In this document: positions 4,473 through 63,799 of the stretch, one piece after another
How positions within the stretch are numbered: position 1 is the first letter of the stretch
How the letters are laid out: each line of letters opens with the position of its first letter
Assembly: GCA_000165425.1 (NCBI GenBank)
Contig: CT868681.1
Location: forward strand, 1 to 64,000
Direction of reading: 5' to 3'
From: Paramecium tetraurelia
Lineage: Eukaryota
DNA length: 64,000 bases
Notes under the pieces: generated by a model
What the model was told of the DNA's origin: nothing
Databases searched by the model: none
Seen by the model: only the letters and a program-made list of their open reading frames with translations
Position numbers and translations under genes: made by a program

Positions 4473-6372
4473 ATGAGTAGGAACTTTAAATTAGGTATAA
4501 TTTAGATAATATAAAGTAGGAGAGATAGAAAATCAAACCAAAATAAAATTAGCAAAGTTTTCAGGATAGAATAGCAGATTATTTACATTCGTTGATGATA
4601 TCAATTAGATTTTCATAAACAAGATTGAATTTTCAAAAAATTTAAGTGAGTTGGGTATATAGAATCCATTTAATAAACAATTTGGAATAAGTCAGAATGA
4701 GATTTCATCAATAATATTTTCATAGTCTGAAAACGAATTAGTAAATGGGTCTAATAAAGGAATATTAACTTATTGGGATATATCTACATAAAAAAGTATA
4801 CATAGTAAACGATTTTAGTTATACAAAATATAAAAGGACATTTATCTGGCATTAGTTGTTTGAGTGTATTTCCAAATGATAATAATTTATTGATATCTGG
4901 AGGAATGGATAGTTAGATAAAGATTTGGGATTCAAGACAGTAAAATAATGGATTGACATTACGATCTCACAAATTATCAATAAATAGTATGATGGTATCT
5001 AAAGATGGGAAATTATTGGCTTCAGGATCAAATGATGGAAGTGTAAAGATTTGGGAAATGAATACTTAAAAAGTATTGGCATCATTTAATGAATCAGATT
5101 GGCCTATATGCTGCGTTTAATTTAATCCTGTTGATAAGGCTGTTGCTGCATCCTCAGATGATGGTTGTATCAGATATTGGGATGTTGATAGATTGAGTCT
5201 AATATCTCAAACAATCCCAGACAAATAATGTATTTATCAGATAAAGTTTTGCGAAAATGGTCAATAGTTATTTTCAGCCTAAAACTTCTCCTTAAAAGTT
5301 TGGGATATGGAAAGAGATGGCTTATTATTAGATTATATTGATAGTCAATGGAAATGTATTTTAGATTTAAATGTTTTTGATAACAAAGATATAATTGGGT
5401 TAACAACCTAAAATTCTACAGGTTTAAGTATATTTGGTACAAAGATGAACAATATCAACAATGAAAAACACATATATCGAAATCATAGTGAGAAGGTGCA
5501 GGGATGTTAAATTAGTGATCACGGTTATGAAAGACATAGTGTAAATGTATTGAAACCAAAAAACACTCATATACAGAGTTATGGAAATATATTAGAAGAA
5601 TAAGGCTTTTAATTGTGTAGTAATAATTCAAACAAATTTTTACCGACAAGCCAAATTGCTTAGAGAATTAATTATGAAAGTGTTATTTAAGAGGAGGACA
5701 TGAAATAAAGTTGCTTGGATTTAATAATAAGTCATGATGAGGTTAATTTGTCTAGTTTTGTCATTGACGATTCAAATAAATAAAAATTTAAATAAATGGA
5801 TTAAATCAATGACATTTCAAAAGATCATAGTAAAGTTATTTAAATATTAAATTAAAGAATCAATTATATGAAACCCATTATGCATTGGTGGAGTAATAAT
5901 AATATAAAATCTGCAGTAAATGCGATCAATTAATTAAGCGAACCTTCCATTTTATTTGATGCATTATTGATGTGTGCTTAAAGTACAAAGTTCAAATCCA
6001 TTCCTATGGAACAACTACCTTAGCTTTTAGAAAAATGCAAAATTTTAATAGACTCAAAATACTTGTCTCATATTAGAGGAGGTCTACTGTTTTGTTATAG
6101 AACATTCACTACTTATAGAGACGTACAATTTTGTAATCCATAAATTTTAGGATATTCAAACCATCAAGAGTTTTAATTAGATGTCTAAAGTAGATTTGAG
6201 TAGAGAAGAGAGAATTGCAAAATACGATAAAATAGTGGAACAATTAAAACAAATTGTTTAAATGTCTAAATTGACCAAATTAATTGAGAGAAATAAAATG
6301 GAAGTTAGTGAATTAGCGAAAAAGTTACAAATAGAGATGCTAAGTTTGCTTAAAAGAATTAATTAATAATGA
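4473..6372 (+). CDS. KATNB1: Katanin p80-like WD40 protein
   Basis: WD40 repeats (LISGGMDSQIKIWD, LLASGSNDGSVKIWE, SSDDGCIRYWD) plus a C-terminal con80-like region (HSKVIQILNQRINYMKPIMHWW; VDLSREERIAKY). About 3 tiny introns. Confidence 0.85.
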
Positions 6373-10800: not shown

Positions 10801-13800
10801 ATATTTTCTAAATCTGTACAGAATTCTTTTGAAAAGAAATCATGTACCATATTACTTATTCTTTTTAGTTTTTGTTCTAAATCAATGGCATCTAAAATTT
10901 AGAAATGTAATTTTTATTTTGATGATGATTCTTACTTCGATTTCTTTTTTTCTAAAAATACTTATTTTCTTTAACCATATTCCTTAAATTTATCCACTAA
11001 GTTGTTGAAATTATTGACTTTTTGATTTATTATTTGAATAATTGCTGAATACTTAGGCATATGAGACATTTAAATAATTTCTAATAGCAGCTTGAGACTC
11101 TCATATGTGTGTAATTCAGAGTTTTCAATTTCTTAAAATTTCGTAATGATTGTTACCCATACATTATAAATTTTCACTTAATCCCATATTCCACCTTTAA
11201 TATTTAAAGTTATTTTGTTATAACCCTCAAACCAATCAGATAATGAGATTTCTTTTGGTTATTTATTAATATAGTCTTGTAATGGTACAACTATCTAATT
11301 AAGTATTACAAATTATTTATTAAACAATTCAATAAATTAATCCAACTTAGTTTATTCTACATGATCTTATAATTGAAACTTCTTTGTTATTACAGATTCT
11401 ATTAATTGATTACTTATTTCTGACTTTTACTCATGTAACGATAATAATATTTTGGTTTATTTTTACCATAAGAAGTTTGAATATTAATTAAAGACATTAT
11501 TGATTCGTTTATCGAGTATGTTTTGCTGTTTATTTAAGATGGCTTCTAAATCATTAATCATCGATTCTTGATCATTTTTAAATATGATAGAAAAAGGATT
11601 GCTAATTTAATTAATTTTAAATTGCAAATCTGGATTTTTATCATCTTCAATTTCCATTTCCTACTCAGGAGATTTATATTTTTAATAAAACTCATACAAT
11701 TGTTAGATAAATTGACAAGCTTTGTTTAAACTTTATAATTGTTATTTCTCTTCAAATATAATTTTACTTTAAGAAATTTCATATAAATATAACTTGGCTT
11801 AATCTAATTATTCACATTCATAAATTTCATTTTCTAATAATCTTTGAATTTCTTTCTTTTTTTAGTGATACTTATTGATTTCACATTCAAATTAGTGAAT
11901 TATTTTATCATCAAAATTATATTATTTTGATTTTTCTAAACACATTTCTAATTATTAAAACGTTTGTGTTTTGGCTAGTCTTATTTTTTCAACTTCCTAA
12001 AATATTTCTAATTTTTATTGAAGTTCTTTAATTTCTGGAACATCATATAATTTATTCATTTATAATTCTGCTTAGTATTTTTTTCTTAATTATTCATTTA
12101 GCCCTTTTTAAAGTGTTATATTTCTTAACTTTTATCTATATTCATTCATTTGTTTTTCTACTCTACTTAAAAGTTAAACCTCCTTCTAAGGAGCTTTAGT
12201 TTCTTTTTATAAGTCTTTTAGCATTTATAAATGTGGAATGGAGATTTTAATCTAAATTTCTTTAGTTATTTATTATAACTCGCTGTCGTCATCATCATCA
12301 TCCCTATCTTAATAATAATCAAGATCTTGGATGTATAGTTCATACAATTTAATTTTAGATAGAAAAGCATAATGTTTAGGGAAATCCTTATAATAACAGA
12401 ATGTTTGTTCCATTTTATTTATTAGAATTTGAATGGCATTATTCTGATTATATAGTTTGGAATCCTCTAATTATCCAATAATATGCAATCCTTAATTTAC
12501 TTCTTATTCTATGTATGAAATCCAAGATACTTTAATAGATAAGTTTTCAATTTATTTTAAAATCTTATTAACATACTCCACATTAATTTTACATTAATTT
12601 AATTTAATTCTGGATTGAGAAATGAGATTGAAGAATTCTTAATAATTGTGAATTGGCTCTATTTCTAATTCAAAATATTTTTGTAATTTTTAATACTCCT
12701 CAAGTTCATCATCTTCATCTTCTTCTTCTTCAGATGAGTCAATAATTCCATTAAATTTGGTTTCAAAATCTTAGAATTTATCTTAAGATTTTTGCAAAGT
12801 AGAAACAAACTCTCTTTTTATTCTTTTATAAGTTGGTATTTATTATTGTAAGTAAATGAACTCTTGAAATTCAGTTGATTTATATTCCATTAATATTGTA
12901 GTCTTCGTTATTTTCTATTTCATTATAATTATGTCAAAGGCTTTTTGTAAATGATTCAATTTTTGTAATAATTCCTAATAAAATTAGCATTCTTCCAAAT
13001 CTTTAAACAAAGTGATAACTTGTAATAGTTTATTTTTTAAAGCACTATTATGTTGAATATTTTCAGGAATAGTGTTATTTTTGTCATCTAACTAAGATCT
13101 GATTATCCATTAGTTTTCATCTCTATAAGGAATTTTTTAGGTAAAAATAAAGTTCATCAAATCAGTTAATTTAGATTTCTCTTCAATTAAACCAAGCTAA
13201 GTTTATAGAGAATTTGGAAATGGAAGATTTGAAAGAATGAATTATAGTATTTAATATTCAGCTTCATTATCTAAATATTTAAAAAATTTTACATTTGGAT
13301 ATCATTCTATCTAACGCTCTTTCACAATAAATTCCAATAATAAGGAGTGATATGAAATTCAATTTCAAAACAGGTGGAAATAATTGATTTAAATTAGAAA
13401 TTGGATTAAATCTTAAGATATGATTTAGTTTATTTTTTGCCCATCTAATACAGAATGGACAACAATATATTTCTTTGCTCTTTTGTTCTTGAAAATCCTT
13501 TTAGTATTTTCGTACACATTGATCATGAAACCATTCTGTACAGGTTTCACATTAGACCATATCATCTGAATCTACTTCTTGTTTACAATAACAATAAGAC
13601 TTAGCAGATTTGTGTTTGAAACAAATCCATGATAAGATAGATCTAATATGATAATTATTAATTACTCTTTTTCTTCTTCAATTTTATCAGTTTAAAAGTA
13701 TTGTTAAAATAATACATCTAATTTAATTTACTTAGAATTTCCTTATATTTTCATATATTATTCAAATATATTTTGGACATTATTTTTAAGTGACTATTTA

Positions 13801-14655
13801 TCTCTATTTGATTGAACCATATTATCAATAGAAAGCATTTGTTTATAATTAAAGTATATTTACCATTAATTCTCCTTGCTGCTTTCTGAATAATCTAATC
13901 TAAACCCTCCAGAATCTGTGATTTTTAGTAAAATGCAATAGACGTGAGCATATGCATTACATTTATTGCATTTGATGGTTCCAGTAGGTCCTTTACAGTA
14001 TACACAAGCCTATGAGTTTTACTTTAATTTTTCTGTATTTGATCTATCAATTTATGGAATATTTTAATTATTTAGTTTGTTAAATTTCATTTCAATAAAT
14101 GAGATTATTTCTATTTGTTTAGAGAACTATGCGCATAATGGATGTACAAATTCATTAGAATTATACAATTTTTTTTTGAGACCTTATTTTTAATTACAAA
14201 CAAGACATGGATAATCTTGAAGTTTATTTGACTTGCACCTGTCACATTAGAAATACCCTTAATTATTGGAATTGGACAATTTTTCAATTTCTGTTGATAT
14301 CCCATAGCAATAGTAATGACATGTTGATAGACATCCAAAACATGTTATTTTCATCATACCTAAATGTAAATATGAGAGTATACCTATTTCAGGCTATTAA
14401 ATTTGTCTATCAAATCCGATTCCGCAAATCTCACAACATTCAGCCTAAAAAAAGTTTTTAATTATATATACATTTTTGTCTTTGAAATGAGGTTGTTTCT
14501 TCAGTCTGAATCCCTATTGCTACTTATTTAAGTGGTGTTAAACTAAAGATAAAATAGGAATTATAATTATTATATAATCGTATATAAAGCGAATAAATAT
14601 ATATAGATAACACACCTACTGAAAGATCTAATTTTTTATTGTCTTCTGGGTTCAT
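7846..14655 (-). CDS. Large (about 2200 aa) chromatin protein: PZP (PHD-Zn knuckle-ePHD), extra PHD, long helical region, TFIIS-M-like and SPOC-like C-terminus
   Basis: PHD1 CEICG...CFGCLSTCHYYCYG...CDRC; knuckle CLVC...FVHPLC; ePHD CVYC...IKCNKCNAYAHVYC...CFKH; PHD3 YCYCKQEVDSDDMVQCETCTEWFHDQC...CPFC; TFIIS-M-like RHELLTAM...AKEIENQQF...Y. The SPOC assignment is inferred from position and is tentative. Confidence 0.8.
14543..14615 (-). other. Unusually long (73 nt) first intron, GTG...TAG, no internal AG
   Basis: Removing it joins MNPEDNKKLDLSV to VQHHLNKQQQGFRLKKQPHFKDKN and on into the PHD frame. Other donors give early stops. Confidence 0.6.
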
Positions 14656-44773: not shown

Positions 44774-46222
44774 TCATAGAAGTTATTAATAAAACAATAT
44801 ATATCCTTATTGTTAGAGTACATCAATGTTGTTTACTTATTTAATCTTTTGATCATTGAATAGCCACCATTTATTTTATCTCTTGCAATAAGAATAATAG
44901 TGACCTTACTCTAGAGAACCAGAATGGACAATAATTCCAACTAAACTGTATTTGATACCACAAAATGTCGATTCCAGTGAAAACTTTACATGTTAGATTA
45001 TTTTGTTTGATTTTGGAAAAAACTTGAATCTTTTTAGATGTAGTATTAAATATTAAGGTAATTTAATAATTCTTGTCTTTTTGATGGCTGTTTTCTTTTT
45101 ATGACAGCAATCGCATTTGTAATCCTGGATCAATTCATCTTTAAGAAACTCATCCAAGGATTGATTAATGGAATTGATTTTGTTCAAAGCCAACGATAAA
45201 GTCAAGAAATCTTCAGTTATTGAGGACTTATGCGAACAATTTTTGCAAATAATTTCACTTATCGTCTATCCTTTAAGATATTTCTCAATAATATTAGGCA
45301 ATTTAGTTTGTTGTTAGCCTTGCTTTTTATTGAAGTTGCTTATTTCATCTTCTAAACTCGATATCAAAAACAACAAAAATTCTTATGCATCATGTTGGTG
45401 TTTTGGATTGAATTTCTTACTGATAGTATTGCGCAAAGAGTTAATTTTGATATAATCATATTAGGTATCTTTGAGCTATCGAAGAAGTTCTTGATAATTG
45501 CGACATAATGTCATAGATTATGAGTGTTATCTATTGATACTATTTAAAATGAAGTTGTTGAGTTCCTATATGCTCATCATGCATTATAATGTTGAATGCA
45601 TATAGCAAAAGTACAACTCATTCTTCAACCCTTTGATTGGAATCTCAGGATTTATATCTAATTGAGATACGCTCGAAATTATGCTAATATCAACGGACTT
45701 TGCTCTGTCTGTTGTTGAACTGGCATTGGAGGTTGGAGATGGGGGAATTTTCTCATCCAGAATTTCAGGACCTCCACTATACTCTTCAAGAAGGAACTTC
45801 CAAACTGTCTCATTCACCACAAAGAAATCCACATTCCTCATCTGATTCCTATTTTGTAACAAGTCAGTATTGTCAATTGGACCAGGCAATGTACTTGAGT
45901 TGTCATATAAATATGTTGTGTATTTCTATGCCCAAGCTCCATTCAATCTGTACCAATCCGAATCGGTATTCTTTTTCAAATCAACCAACCTTTTTATTAA
46001 TTGGCATTCCAATTCTCGACGAATGTTTCCTTGAGCATTTCTGAATTAATTTTATAATTTAAGTATTTGAGGGACTTCACGAGAATATGAGGGAGCCTTC
46101 TTCTAAGGGAACTACGGGACCTGCTGATTTATTGAACTGCTTGAGTTATACACAATATTACATTACTTATCTTCTTCATTCAAGTTTTCACTATTATTAT
46201 CAGTGTCTTAAAATGATTGCAT
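44774..46222 (-). CDS. Ubiquitin-specific protease (DUSP + C19 domain)
   Basis: DUSP PGPIDNTDLL...VWKFLLEEYSGGP; Cys box GLKNELYFCYMHSTLQC; QHDAQEF; His box HSGSLEQGHYYSY...FND. Confidence 0.9.
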
Positions 46223-46519
46223 TTAATGTAATTAAATAAAAACAATATAATATCAAAAAATCAAAACAGTTCATTTATATCTATCTATCACCTAAATGTT
46301 GTCATAAGTGCTCGCAAGTAAATCTTGCCTAATTTCAGTATTCTATCGTGGCCAATTCTAAAACTACTGCTCACACTTGATATAGAAAGTATAAATATAT
46401 ATGTTCAGAAAATTCAAATGTTAACAAATTTTTTGGATTATTTATTTTTTAAATTAACAGTATTTCTAATACTATTTTAGTCTAATAGAAATAGCAATTT
46501 TTAAGTCTTATGACTGATA

Positions 46520-56111: not shown

Positions 56112-58398
56112 TCATAAAGCTATCTATATAGTTTGTAGAATTTATTTAATTTCAATGGTACTAATGGGTTTTTATAAAAAATAGTCCATACCCACTTCAT
56201 TGCACATTTGTTTGGTCTACATGTCAGTGTAAGCAGTTTAGGCAATGATGATGGGAGGATCTAAGTCTGCAGAACGACAAAATTCGAGTATCTGTTGAGT
56301 GGCTTAGATGCCATTCATGATTGGCATTTCGATATCCATCAGGATGACCTGATAGTTTTCTTTTTTGAATTTCTCTAGTCCTTCCTTGCCATTATGTGCT
56401 GAATCGCACTTAATGTTCAATCTTGAAAGCATTGTAGTAAGTGCATAGATATTAACAAATTCATCATCGACAATAAGGATTTTAGCTCTTTCTTCTGCAT
56501 ACTCACTGACAACTTGATCAATAGAGTATTTCTGCTTTTTAGGTTTCTTTGGTCCTTCTCTAAAGACATAGGGTGCACAAATGACATCATCTGGCTCAGA
56601 AAAATCTTTTAGTATAAGAATTAATAAGCATACTTTCCGATTATTTTTCAATTAGTTTCTATTTGCCCTTTAATGAGAATGTAAAAGAGGACTACCTCTT
56701 CTTATCACTAGGACTGATGATAAAGCTTTATTCCAAAAAGCTTCTACCAGAACTGTGTATTTTACTATATTTGATAGTCCTCCTGCTAACAACATCAGGT
56801 AAATCCATAGTTTTGAGATCCTCTAGGTAGAACCAAAATGTAGTGCCAGTCTTATTATTGGATTGAAAATGTATACCAGATTCGTAATTGGGAGACAATC
56901 CGTTACAAATAGTATTACTTATCATTAAACCTAACCCAAAATTAAGATTGGACTTTCGTTTATGAGGTTGTTTAAGGAACTCTTACAATCGATTCTGAGT
57001 GTTCTAATCCATTCCAGAGCCTGTATCTTAGACACTGACTTTAATAAAGGATTAATCGTGTATGATTTATTCTTGAACATCGATGTTGACACTGCCAGAG
57101 AAGGTAAACTTTTAGGCATTGGACAAGAGATTATTAAGTACTTATTTGAAGCGTTGACCATCCGTATGAATCTAGCACTCATTCATCTTAACATTAAGTT
57201 GCACACCCTTCATATTGAGTTGTTATCGATACAATTCAGACACTTCGTGGATGAGCAAGTAGATGTTTTATATCTAAATGGTTAGTATGAAATTCTTAGA
57301 CAAGATCAAACTGAAATCCCTAACATCTTGAACTATGGAATTGAGAATGTAACAGGAATTCAAAATGGGTTAGATACATGTATTCACAATATAGTCATCG
57401 TCGATATCCTCAATAGCATTTTCTGCTAGAATCCTTATGCAATTTAATGACGTACTGAATTCATGACTGAAGCTGCGAAACAGTTAATTCATAAGTTACT
57501 TAGTTACTTTCCTCTCCCAATAATCTCTCAATTCAAACATGTCATGGAATCTCAGACCCACATTATCATTAATGAGGGCTAATTCAATCATGTAATTGTC
57601 TCCAAAAGGAGCAGAACAATCCAATACTTTACATTTAATAAGATCTGCTGTTTCTATCAATTGCAAAAGAGTGCCAATTTTATATTTCTTGAATTGTTTG
57701 TTAAGTTTATGGATGACTATCTCCTTGAGTATTTATTGAATGGCCACAGGATCATCAGAACCCAATAATTTCTGCTATTCAGATGTTTGACTGACCATTT
57801 TGCCTTAGCGAGTGACCACCAGATCATATTTGTCATTCTGACTGATTATCAAACTATCTGATGGATTGATCCAAGTTTTGGAGTAACTATGATTCTTTGA
57901 AACCTGACGGACTTTCTCTGCAGAACGATTGATAGACAACCAAGCCATCAGAATGAATGCGTAACCGACCAAGGTGTGTTCATAGCTGAACTCTAATTTG
58001 GCACTAACCACCACAGCTATGAATGGCATACAAAGAAACATTTTCTTAGGATGCTGATGATTCTAGATTGGAATGATATAAAGCAACCTTTTTGGGAATA
58101 ATGCAAAATACATCTCACTGATATGTGTAGAACCTATGGTTCTTAATGAATTGCCAACAAGCAACAGTATAAGCAATTCAATCCGATCGTTCTTAAAGTT
58201 CCTTCTCTTGAACCGCCAACCAAACCACATGCTTAAAACACCCAATGATGATATCATAGCATATACTTGGTAACTTCTCTGTAAATCGAAGAAATATTCT
58301 GCCAACGATGCTCCACCTATTCCTACAATATACAAAAAATCAATAATAATCATATTTATAGTAAACCATTCAAATATTCTCTAATCTATCGGCTCCAT
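56112..58398 (-). CDS. Membrane hybrid histidine kinase (TM + HisKA + HATPase + REC); start uncertain
   Basis: SFSHEFSTSLN, QVLNNLLSNAQKFT, VQDTGSGM, GLGLMIS, GTTFWF; REC ILIVDD...MDIEMPIMNG...KP. Confidence 0.92.
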
Positions 58399-59593
58399 TA
58401 ATGGACTCTGTTATTTTCACACCTCTCTTCCATTTCAAATCACATCATTTGAATATCTCTAAATTTACTATCCTCCATCATATCATACTTATATCTTTAA
58501 TTCATCCATTATAATCTCTATAACTCTTCATAAATAATATTAAACACTAGCAGAACACTTGTTTATTTCTGAATTTATCAAATCTATTTGCTGAATTCTA
58601 ATATATATCATTTATCATTCATATAAAATCCTTATGACTTTTTAACATGTAGAAACAATAATCAAAAGTGAGACTTAAATTACTTTAGAACATCAACTTG
58701 TATTGAATCTTATAGATCTATTAATAACAAACAATTGTAACAATTATTCAGCACATGCAATTGAAATCATAAATAATCCACTTTCTTATTATTACTCATA
58801 TTAACATGTCTATTTGAATAAATCCATTATTATAATTTTATTAAATTATTCATTTTCTTAAAATCTATTAATTTAATACACCTTCATTCATTTTAATTAA
58901 TAAACTTCTCCAAATTTAACTAAATATTATGGTCACTCTTATAGAATTAGCATCTTCAATAAACAAAGGAGTCAACTGACTATATATAACTTTTATTCAT
59001 GACTATATCCTAATTTGCAACTTTGGAATCATATCTGCATTAAAAGTGACATTAACTTAAAAATTTAAAGTCATCATTAAAGATCACAAACAAAACACTT
59101 CTAATAATTTAGTACATTAAGAGTTATATCTTGACGTTATAAAATTATCAACTTCTTTTTCTTTGTAGTTATTATAAATTTTTAATATAACTGTGCGTAT
59201 AATTGTAAATCACTATTATAGAGTAGAAATTGTGAATTATCTAGGTATTTCAATCTGATATTAATAAAGTAAATCATCTGTAATTGAGTTTTTCTCGGAA
59301 AATAATGTTGATTTAATTCCCATCACTGAGTAAGATTAAAATTATTAAGATCTTTATCTTTAAAATCTAATAACAAGACTCTCTTTCATGATGTTCGTAA
59401 TTCAGTACTTTAGCATTTATTTACATGGAATCTCTCATTTAAAGTAATCTTGACTAGATGTCAAAAATTTACTCAAATAATAAACATAAGGTTTATTAAT
59501 GAAACTCCTGATTGCTTGATTACAATAGTAGTATTGTTAAGAATACAGATATGAACTTTCTTTATGATAAATATTATTAATATGTTTGATTTA

Positions 59594-60695: not shown

Positions 60696-61208
60696 TCACA
60701 TGAAATCATCATCATCATCAACGTTATCAAAGTCCTCTTCTTCATCTTCCACAATGTTTTTAGTCTTTCCAAATGAAACTCCCTTTGGTGGTCCTTGCTA
60801 TTGACTCTTCTTCTTAATGGCTTCTTCTGCTTCAAATTGCTTCCTTTTTTTAATGTAAATTTCCTCCACTGCTTTGAACAATTCCTCGTAATGATTCAAC
60901 AATAATTTTCCTTCCAACTTAGTTAACAAGGTCTTCAAGAACTCGGTTGTATAGTTGGGACCCACATTTTACAAAGCTGCAGCAAAATTCTCACCAATTT
61001 TCTTCAGATCCACTTATCCAATATTCTTCTTAACTGGTTTGTCTCCTCCGAATAAATCGAAAACATTATTCATATCTGATTCCTTTGATTGCACTTCTGA
61101 TTTCTACTATTAAGTTTAAGGTTATTTAGACTTGTCGTCTTCCTTCTATACTTACTCTTCCCCTTGTTCTTCGTCAGCGTATTATTCCCAATCCTCTACG
61201 TCTGACAT
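60696..61208 (-). CDS. EIF3J: Translation initiation factor eIF3j
   Basis: Acidic DWE N-terminus, ESDMNNVFDLFG, C-terminal DDDDDFM*. Intronless. Confidence 0.8.
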
Positions 61209-61410
61209 TTGGATAATTAAATTAAAGAATAATCACAATTTTAATTCCCATTATAATATATATATATGCACTCCTATTTTATTTATAATTTAATTCCGCA
61301 CTATTATTAAATCATACAATTATTAAAATCAAACACACTAAATATTCTACTATTTTTAAATATGAACCACTTCATTTATTAAATAATATTAATATCAAAT
61401 TCTACACAAC

Positions 61411-61849
61411 ATGGCCAGAACCAAACAAGGAAAACCAAGCAATAACAAATTCAGTCTTTCACCTCAAAGTATGTGCAATGACTCCTTGGAAAACAAAAAA
61501 CAAATTTACAAAAACCAATAAAAAAGGAAACACAAATTCAGACCTGGAACTGTCTCTCTGAGAGAAATCAGAAAGTATGTCTCCTCTCTAAAATTGTAGA
61601 TATCAATCATCCACTCAACTCCTGATTAGGAAACTGCCATTCTAAAGACTAGTGAGAGAAGTGTCATAGAGATCTGAGAAAGATTTCAGATTTACCCAAT
61701 CTGCCCTTTATGCTTTACAGGAAGCCACAGAAGGATTCATTACTCATCTATTTGAAGATGCCAACCTGTGTTCTCATCACGCGAAGAGGGTAACCTTACT
61801 CACTCGAGACTTGCAATTGGCCATCAGAATCTAAGGAATAGAATATTGA
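61411..61849 (+). CDS. Divergent histone H3 variant
   Basis: [137 protein letters not shown]. One 25-nt intron. Confidence 0.95.
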
Positions 61850-61870
61850 TTTGTGATAAATAAAATACTG

Positions 61871-63799
61871 TCAACAACGATCAAATTATTATTATATAAA
61901 CTTTTGCATGTCTCCTCCCATCTTTACATAATCTTCATAAAGATCTGAAACCATTATATTCCTACCTGGATGGTTGGAAGGCAATTTGTTCTTTTGAGTC
62001 AGAGCAGCATCAAAAAACAATCGCTTCATAGTCTATTCAGATGGTCTTTGCATATCAGATTGTCTCTGGACTTCAGATATCCTCTCCTGAGTAAATTTTT
62101 ATTAGGATTCCTAAAGAGAACTTTGTTCAGATCTCCTTTGATATTCAGTTGCATAATAAATGTTTTTAGGCTCATTGCTTGAGTATCTCTATTCTAAGTT
62201 GATGCTAGGTCTCGATTCGAATTACAATTAATAACTCAAACGAGCATCTTGAGAGTATGGTTTATGATCATCAGATTTCCTTTCATAATTGACTGATCCT
62301 CTCGATTCATAGCTGACTTGATTCACAACTGATTGTTATTTAGGTCTTGGAATGTCTGGTTTATTGATATTGCTTAATCTTTAATCAAAATATAGGTTAT
62401 GTTCCTCTAGATGACGTTAATCTCTTGCTTTTTTATCGAAATTGCGATCGACATCGATTTATTGAGTGATCATAGTGTTGCTACTTTCTACTTTGGAAGG
62501 AGTTTAGTAATTATTAAGAGAAGACTTAGTCGTAGAACTGGTTCGTTGTTCTGGCAGAGCATGTACAGGCATGGAGGCTCTTTGAGTGAACAAATCTGTT
62601 TTCATTTTAGAATTGAGCAAAGCCTTATTGATGTATTTATAGAGATTGATAGATCCTTCCTTATTGTTTGATAACTATTGGATGCCTTATTCAATTCTGA
62701 AAATGATGGTTTTGACCAATTAATAATCTTGAGTGTTGATTATTTCTTATAAACTAGAGATCATTTCGCCCAAGATCTTTTATGTGTATGGCATATTCTC
62801 CTTTTAGAGTTCCTATTGCAATTTCTACTTCAATGCTGCTATTTTAGAATTAATTCTTTGCATTGACACTTATTTCTGATCATAAAAGGAATCTTCCATT
62901 TTAGGGAACTATGTATAAACTGTCATGTCTAATTGAGTTATGGGTTGCTAAGCGGGAATTGATTTCTGTTCATACGAGGGGATTGTAGTTGGGACAGACG
63001 GATAAGTAGCAGTTTTGGTTGGACTTTGCTATTGATTTCCATTGGTTTTACTGAAATTCTACTCGTAATTGTTGGAAGTCAGATTGGATTGACCAACTGT
63101 TATTGATTGAGCAAATTGGGCCTGAGCCTTATTTTTAACAGCTTGACTTGAATGCTTACTAGATTGATTAGATTAAAATGTAAACTGTTTTTCTGATTCT
63201 GCTGCCTTATTCGATTAAGGTTGAAGTTGAGATTCACCTGCATTGATACGTGATCGTAACAACTAAGACTTTTCTTATTGCACTTAGGATATATTCTTGA
63301 ATTTAGTAAGGAATTCTTCCACTAGATTGAACATCTAAGTCAATTGTTGTTCCTAATTGAATGATATTCAATCTCATACTTTATATGCTGGTATTGTACT
63401 GTCTGCAATTGAAATGGCTGACAAATCTGGGTTGTTGAATTTGTCTACAATTTAAGAATATTCCTAGGCTACTTGATTGGCATCCAATTCTAATTGATGT
63501 TTGATAGTGTTCTTCTTATTCTATTGTTCAGGAGCTTTCAGAGCCACAGAATACCTCTCCAACATGTCTTTGATATAATGATGATCTGATACTTAATACT
63601 TTATCTTTCAAGTGAGACATGTCATCAAAGAGATCATTCTCATTGAGCAATCGCTAATTTTGTAATTTCTGAGATTCAAATTTCTTGTTCTCTTCTCCAA
63701 AGGTTAGACGAGCAATTGCATCCTTTTTTGGTGGTGGATCTAAATCAAACTATGGTTAGATTGGATTTAGAAACATCTTGTCATGTCTCGATTGTTCAT
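61871..63799 (-). CDS. Hypothetical coiled-coil protein
   Basis: MNNRDMTRYPPPKKDAIARLTFGEE..., long Q/E/K-rich frame ending QFDRC*. Confidence 0.65.

Follow-up and report, generated by a model that had tools for sequence, protein, structure and literature searches.

The gene at positions 61411-61849 of the stretch of Paramecium tetraurelia DNA analysed here (the window, 64,000 nt in full) is the macronuclear copy of the published histone H3 variant gene H3v1 (GSPATG00027423001). It is best explained as an intact, spliced and conditionally expressed gene whose product would pair with H4 and replace canonical H3 in nucleosomes at meiosis and in early autogamy, a reading to which we assign a probability of roughly 0.6. 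The spliced product agrees in 137 of 137 residues with the P. tetraurelia protein GSPATT00027423001 / XP_001462467 (P0123) and is identical to the sequence printed as PtH3v1 in Supplementary Fig. S2 of Lhuillier-Akakpo et al. (NAR 2016; PMC4770206), whose Supplementary Fig. S1 attaches the label 'H3v1' to GSPATG00027423001. The text and supplementary alignment of that paper, from which the relations of H3v1 to H3P1-4, H3v2 and CenH3 are taken throughout, count 16 H3 genes encoding ten proteins in P. tetraurelia, with H3v1 as a single-copy gene; they already describe changes around K9, K27 and K79 in both H3v1 and H3v2, and report from microarray data an early induction of H3v1 in the sexual cycle (PMC4770206).

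Since the gene, its name, its peculiarities at K9, K27 and K79 and its induction have been in print since 2015/2016, the core observation is not a discovery. What is added here is the support from RNA reads for the splice and for conditional expression, the loss of K56 and its conservation, the rates of change among orthologues, the synteny, and evidence that the differences at K79 and K122 are not specific to the variant. The gene identifier was not found in three supplement files of the 2010 microarray paper, and no paper was retrieved with the gene number as a literature query. A functional study of H3v1, be it of localisation, modification, partners or knock-down, was likewise not found in the literature searched, bioRxiv supplements being outside its reach.

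Gene structure, transcript and neighbourhood

The gene model, read in the ciliate code (code 6), consists of two exons separated by a short intron (Table 1). The coding sequence of 414 nt specifies 137 amino acids and contains four in-frame TAA/TAG codons read as glutamine; exon 1 ends at REIRK, the last codon being split by the intron.

Table 1. Positions of H3v1, its parts and other annotated features in the window
Feature	Positions	Strand	Basis or description
H3v1 gene	61411-61849	+	two exons, one intron; ciliate code (code 6)
Exon 1	61411-61574	+	code 6 translation; Met, ARTKQ N-terminus, rewritten tail, start of helix alpha-N
Intron, 25 nt	61575-61599	+	GTA...TAG; RNA contig and reads
Exon 2	61600-61849	+	end of alpha-N, alpha1, L1, alpha2, L2, alpha3, TGA
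Ser58 codon (Met = 1), canonical K56 position	61607-61609	+	HMMER alignment with solved H3
Glu81-Lys82 codons, animal K79-T80 positions	61676-61681	+	alignment with solved H3
TGA stop	61847-61849	+	
Short 3'UTR, end approximate	61850-61890	+	fall in X21 depth
AT-rich intergenic region between H3v1 and the divergent eIF3j-like gene	61209-61410		
eIF3j-like gene, divergent, upstream	60696-61208	-	Pfam eIF3_subunit, E 3.1e-08
Convergent gene, downstream	61871-63334 and beyond	-	Q-rich; stop 61871-61873
HATPase_c ORF overlapping Response_reg ORF	56112-58416	-	Pfam; likely an intron-split hybrid histidine kinase
DUSP-UCH ubiquitin hydrolase	44774-46252	-	Pfam
PHD-finger-like protein	13365-14651	-	Pfam
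Katanin p80 (WD40 + con80)	4731-6287	+	Pfam

RNA evidence was drawn from four runs over positions 60950-62150, of which X9 and X12 were available as contigs and X21 and X23, both from one study, as raw reads. The X21 reads are oligo-dT RNA reads; X12 had no contig on the H3v1 gene and was uninformative. An X9 contig spanning 61405-62150 lacks exactly 25 nt at 61575, and the loose read ends found in X21 (46 at 61578 and 21 at 61600) each continue into the other exon; the intron is therefore real. In X21 the depth of the intron bin was 54.6, as against about 200 in the flanking bins. Read pairs over the gene are oriented opposite to those over its two minus-strand neighbours, in keeping with transcription from the plus strand.

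The untranslated regions are very short. The transcript starts at about 61401-61405, leaving a 5'UTR of about 6-10 nt: the X9 contig begins at 61405, and upstream RNA depth is 0 in the bins covering 61237-61359, 0.32 in 61360-61400, and rises in 61401-61441. On the other side, the X21 depth drops from 54.8 (61811-61851) to 12.4 (61852-61892) and then to 0.39 (61893-61933), and the transcript ends at about 61875-61890. Only 21 nt separate the stop codon of H3v1 from that of the convergent gene, so that the 3'UTRs of the two genes must overlap; one X9 contig crosses both.

Depth over the H3v1 exons was about 100-206 in X21 as compared with 0.2-3.5 in X23, so that the mRNA differs about 100-fold between the two runs. 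The eIF3j-like neighbour behaved in the opposite way (41-109 in X21 versus 221-421 in X23), and the downstream neighbour was covered alike in both. The contrast between X21 and X23 supports conditional expression, as distinct from its timing, and is consistent with the early induction reported in PMC4770206.

The promoter presumably lies in the AT-rich intergenic region. The sequence TTTAATTCC occurs there twice, at 61240-61248 and 61289-61297, 49 nt apart. As a promoter repeat it is not significant: the expectation for the whole window is 3.0 copies, 6 are present, and a count of 6 is reached in 8 of 100 shuffles. Its presence may well be due to chance in AT-rich DNA.

The eIF3j-like gene encodes an acidic product of 170 aa. 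In both X21 and X23 another base appears at 60957, 60978, 61026 and 61050 at frequencies of 19-47%, and RNA reads have loose ends at 61130; the variant reads over this gene probably come from a whole-genome-duplication twin or an allele. No Pfam domain was detected in the Q-rich protein encoded downstream (677 aa in the database), which is 84-97% identical in the aurelia species and 51% identical, over the aligned part, to a P. bursaria homologue, and whose duplication twin in P. tetraurelia (P0277) shows 90% identity. A tblastn search of the 64-kb window returned H3v1 itself and otherwise only matches with E > 2, hence no other H3 gene, and a Pfam scan of 26 long ORFs in the window revealed neither H4 nor another histone as a neighbour. 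DCL3, an early-peak meiosis gene (GSPATT00027456001), has a number 33 away from that of H3v1 and is absent from the 26 long ORFs of the scan; if the numbering follows the scaffold, it would lie on the same scaffold beyond the window, and two genes of the early sexual cycle would be separated by some tens of kb.

Histone fold and the residues specific to the variant

The protein carries a histone fold of canonical length. The whole sequence matches Pfam PF00125 with an E-value of 2.6e-40 over residues 26-133, and exon 2 alone does so with 1.8e-31. A phmmer comparison with solved structures gave a best E-value of 7e-39 (H3.1/H3.2) with no gaps over residues 39-134, loop 1 having no insertion with respect to solved H3. 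The features typical of H3 are present, namely the ARTK N-terminus, a core stretch of the LPFQRLVRE type and an alignable alpha-N helix. In an alignment of ten sequences (Met = 1) M1-K5, P68-R74, C112 and H115 are invariant, the last two being the equivalents of C110 and H113.

The N-terminal tail retains ARTKQ, with R2, T3 and K4 in place, and is otherwise rewritten. Canonical Paramecium H3 carries the tail motifs TARKST and AARKTA (PMC4770206); in H3v1 the number of ARK[ST] matches is 0, residue 9 (numbered without the initiator Met) is a serine, and ENKK is found near the K27 region. A K36-like lysine is retained (QQKRKH versus GGLKKPH). Altogether nine lysines are left in the tail, at positions 4, 7, 12, 28, 29, 33, 37, 39 and 41 of the Met-less sequence. 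The start MARTKQGKP is invariant, and ARK[ST] is absent, in all six orthologues from five aurelia species. Within the core, the alignment with solved H3 places a serine at position 56, where YQS replaces YQK. This position is occupied by residues other than lysine in six of six aurelia orthologues (S in three, A in one and F in two), and the alignment in PMC4770206 also has a non-lysine residue there in H3v2 (E) and in CenH3a/b (A/T). Positions 87-90 read S-A-L-Y.

The intact ARTKQ without an ARKS motif, the serine at position 9, ENKK at the K27 equivalent and the change of YQK to YQS had all been noticed in the first-pass annotation, made from the sequence alone, and each of them is borne out by the translation and the alignments. 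That annotation had further regarded QRSEKD in place of QDFKTD, and arginine in place of K122, as losses of K79 and K122. The changes themselves are present in the HMMER alignment; their being special to the variant does not hold, since HEFQKE or HDFQKE, and thus Q79 and K80, as well as MSRD, and thus R122, are found in each of the five canonical H3 proteins of P. tetraurelia (H3P1-4b; PMC4770206). H3v1 keeps the K80 and R122 of the Paramecium type. The differences at K79 and K122 therefore set Paramecium H3 apart from animal H3, not H3v1 from Paramecium H3, and the truly variant-specific changes are those at K9, K27 and K56.

Orthologues and the unevenness of constraint

With the fold domain as query, three clusters stand clearly above generic H3 (66-67% identity) among the 120 matches listed of 6003. 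One of them, built at 90% identity, has four members, from P. tetraurelia, P. octaurelia, P. pentaurelia and P. primaurelia, and the remaining two are proteins of P. sonneborni. A query with the tail only was passed by 2 of 100 candidates, both from aurelia species. Among the best 150 of 1.84 billion representatives clustered at 50% identity, the only H3v1-like sequence was a P. sonneborni protein, the canonical H3 representatives in that set being about 53% identical to H3v1 over the full length. No H3v1-like protein of P. bursaria appeared, though the homologue of the neighbour gene is present in the database, and no closer relative outside the aurelia complex was found among the matches listed in the fold, tail and 50%-representative searches. 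These results hint at, without proving, a variant specific to the aurelia lineage.

As a stand-in for a direct measure of constraint, the divergence of the H3v1 protein was compared with that of the adjacent uncharacterised gene (Table 2). Microsynteny is kept: in the other species H3v1 and this neighbour share contigs, and their accession numbers differ by two. The whole-genome-duplication twin has been lost for H3v1 in P. tetraurelia and kept for the neighbour gene; both H3v1 copies are retained in P. sonneborni.

Table 2. Identity of H3v1 orthologues and of the neighbour gene product to P. tetraurelia
Orthologue	Core (residues 45-137)	Tail (residues 1-44)	Neighbour
P. octaurelia	93/93	40/44	97%
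P. pentaurelia	93/93	40/44	92%
P. primaurelia	92/93	40/44	91%
P. sonneborni, copy on 477,209-nt contig	78/93	36/44	84%
P. sonneborni, copy on 429,846-nt contig	77/93	29/44	85%

Judged by this comparison, the core is clearly constrained within the tetraurelia group. Towards P. sonneborni it is 83-84% identical and the neighbour gene 84-85%; across that split the core has kept pace with an ordinary protein in its rate of change, and for an H3 this is very fast. As core and neighbour have diverged from P. sonneborni to the same extent, H3v1 is constrained unevenly, with a possible relaxation in some branches of the clade.

This unevenness bears on the first alternative to the replacement of canonical H3 proposed above, according to which H3v1 would be a fast-evolving, lineage-specific minor H3 paralogue unrelated to K9/K27 marking, with tail changes that are tolerated drift; in the burst of meiotic divisions it may provide an extra supply of histone, or looser nucleosome ends through the loss of K56. 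Such an origin would fit the tail, which has changed at about the rate of an ordinary neighbour gene (40 of 44 residues identical, versus 91-97%), the core divergence from P. sonneborni just described, the loss of the duplicate in P. tetraurelia and the want of a closer relative outside the aurelia complex among the matches listed; moreover, lysine 56 is gone from H3v2 and CenH3a/b as well (PMC4770206 alignment). Drift is, however, difficult to reconcile with the conservation, in all six orthologues, of the first nine residues and of the absence of both ARK[ST] and K56, with a core that stood frozen in three species while the neighbour changed by 3-9%, or with an expression that is very strong and conditional. 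We regard this alternative as unlikely, yet as one that carries some weight.

Polycomb-type marking and comparison with known H3 variants

If H3v1 replaces canonical H3 as preferred here, it would pair with H4 and take the place of canonical H3 in the nucleosomes of at least one of the nuclei during meiosis and early autogamy. Chromatin assembled in this way would be unable to carry K9me3 and K27me3 at the canonical sites, or acetylation of K56, and marks of the K4 and K36 types would still be possible on it. The matter is of interest because Ezl1 alone writes H3K9me3 and H3K27me3, which guide DNA elimination and transposon silencing. The deposition of both marks by Ezl1, taken as established in the first-pass annotation, agrees with PMC6586856, where Ezl1 chiefly targets K9 and K27 and K23 becomes methylated in vitro once both are mutated. 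EZL1 is described as turned on 'immediately upon meiosis'; GFP-Ezl1 shows up first in the meiosis I MIC and the maternal MAC, and then in the new MACs, H3K27me3 following the same route (PMC4177680). H3v1 and EZL1 are both induced early, and the idea that the variant shields DNA from Ezl1 is therefore compatible in time.

That idea, which takes up the protective chromatin of the first-pass annotation, can be put as follows: at meiosis H3v1 would enter the nuclei in which Ezl1 first appears, namely the MIC at meiosis I, the maternal MAC or both, and its nucleosomes, wherever Ezl1 acts (meiotic MIC, maternal MAC, then new MAC), would shield the underlying DNA from H3K9me3 and H3K27me3 and hence from silencing or elimination. 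Chromatin lacking K9, K27 and K56 would be immune to Polycomb-type marking, in a device specific to the aurelia lineage and with an independently evolved counterpart in Stylonychia H3.7. In its favour are the absence of ARK[ST], shared by six of six orthologues, the standing of K9 and K27 as main targets (PMC6586856), the onset of EZL1 at meiosis (PMC4177680) alongside the early induction of H3v1 (PMC4770206), and the Stylonychia precedent (PMC3918171, PMC5996456). Against it, the specificity of Ezl1 in vitro is relaxed, as the methylation of K23 in K9/K27 mutants indicates (PMC6586856), and nine lysines remain in the H3v1 tail; the part of the argument that concerned K79 and K122 is not specific to H3v1, and induction at the new-MAC stage, the time of elimination, belongs in PMC4770206 to H3v2a/b, not to H3v1. 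A shielding function is accordingly plausible in kind, and in this full form we consider it rather improbable, somewhat more so than the drift of a minor paralogue. If it were true, the germline genome might stay accessible to the genome-wide transcription from which scnRNAs are produced or, alternatively, H3v1 might serve as a mark of what must be kept. An H3 that is turned on along with Ezl1 and lacks the usual sites of both marks is a natural 'mutant substrate', which could show how cells choose the chromatin that is marked.

Two further readings have practically no probability left. That H3v1 is a pseudogene or an annotation artefact, for which nothing speaks beyond its divergence from canonical H3, is refuted by the open frame, the correct splicing, the high and conditional RNA depth (about 100-206) and the orthologues in five species, with a core 99-100% identical in three sister species; the earlier view of an intact fold, intron and stop thus stands. 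That it is a centromeric histone would accord with the divergent tail and core, which leave about 53% full-length identity to typical H3, and is effectively refuted by loop 1, by ARTKQ and by the existence of separate CenH3a/b genes, whose products were localised to the MICs by antibody and GFP (PMC4770206); LPFQRL is kept as well, the last residues, GIEY, coincide with the end of canonical H3 and leave no C-terminal extension, and the best 60 solved-structure matches listed are all named histone H3 (H3.1, H3.2, H3.3 and H3t), none of them CENP-A. The first-pass annotation had argued against CenH3 from the canonical length of loop 1 and from LPFQRL, and correctly so, as the alignment is ungapped over residues 39-134 and extra loop-1 residues occur, in the published alignment, only in CenH3a/b.

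Among the H3 proteins of P. tetraurelia compared in PMC4770206, CenH3a/b share with H3v1 a divergent H3 fold and a residue other than lysine at position 56, and differ from it in that loop 1 is longer, the tail long and unrelated, and the C-terminus extended; their expression is constitutive and low, and they localise to the MIC. H3P4a/b, the replacement proteins of the H3.3 type, are developmentally induced like H3v1 but possess the full canonical tail (ARKS, ARKT and K56) together with the I89 signature, in place of which H3v1 has L89-Y90. H3v2a/b resemble H3v1 in keeping MARTK, in the absence of K9, K27 and K56 and in a loop 1 of canonical length. By eye they also share with it, as against canonical Paramecium H3, E79, QEATE and HHAKR. 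Unlike H3v1, they have a shorter tail (129 aa), a core that is only about 60% identical by hand count, and a later induction, while the new MAC is developing (PMC4770206).

Outside Paramecium, H3.7 of Stylonychia lemnae is a development-specific variant that, like H3v1, is devoid of a conserved K9/K27 motif. As described in PMC3918171 and PMC5996456, it bears a K4me3-like mark, is not recognised by an H3K27me3 antibody, and belongs to decondensed chromatin in which it is enriched on retained sequences. It is unlike H3v1 in its size of about 20 kDa, its long N-terminal extension and its deviating K4 motif; moreover, it acts in the macronuclear anlagen, and its host belongs to a distant ciliate class. 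As the H3v1-like sequences among the matches listed all came from the aurelia complex, orthology between the two proteins is not expected. Stylonychia H3.7 is nevertheless the closest known working model for the shielding of chromatin from Ezl1.
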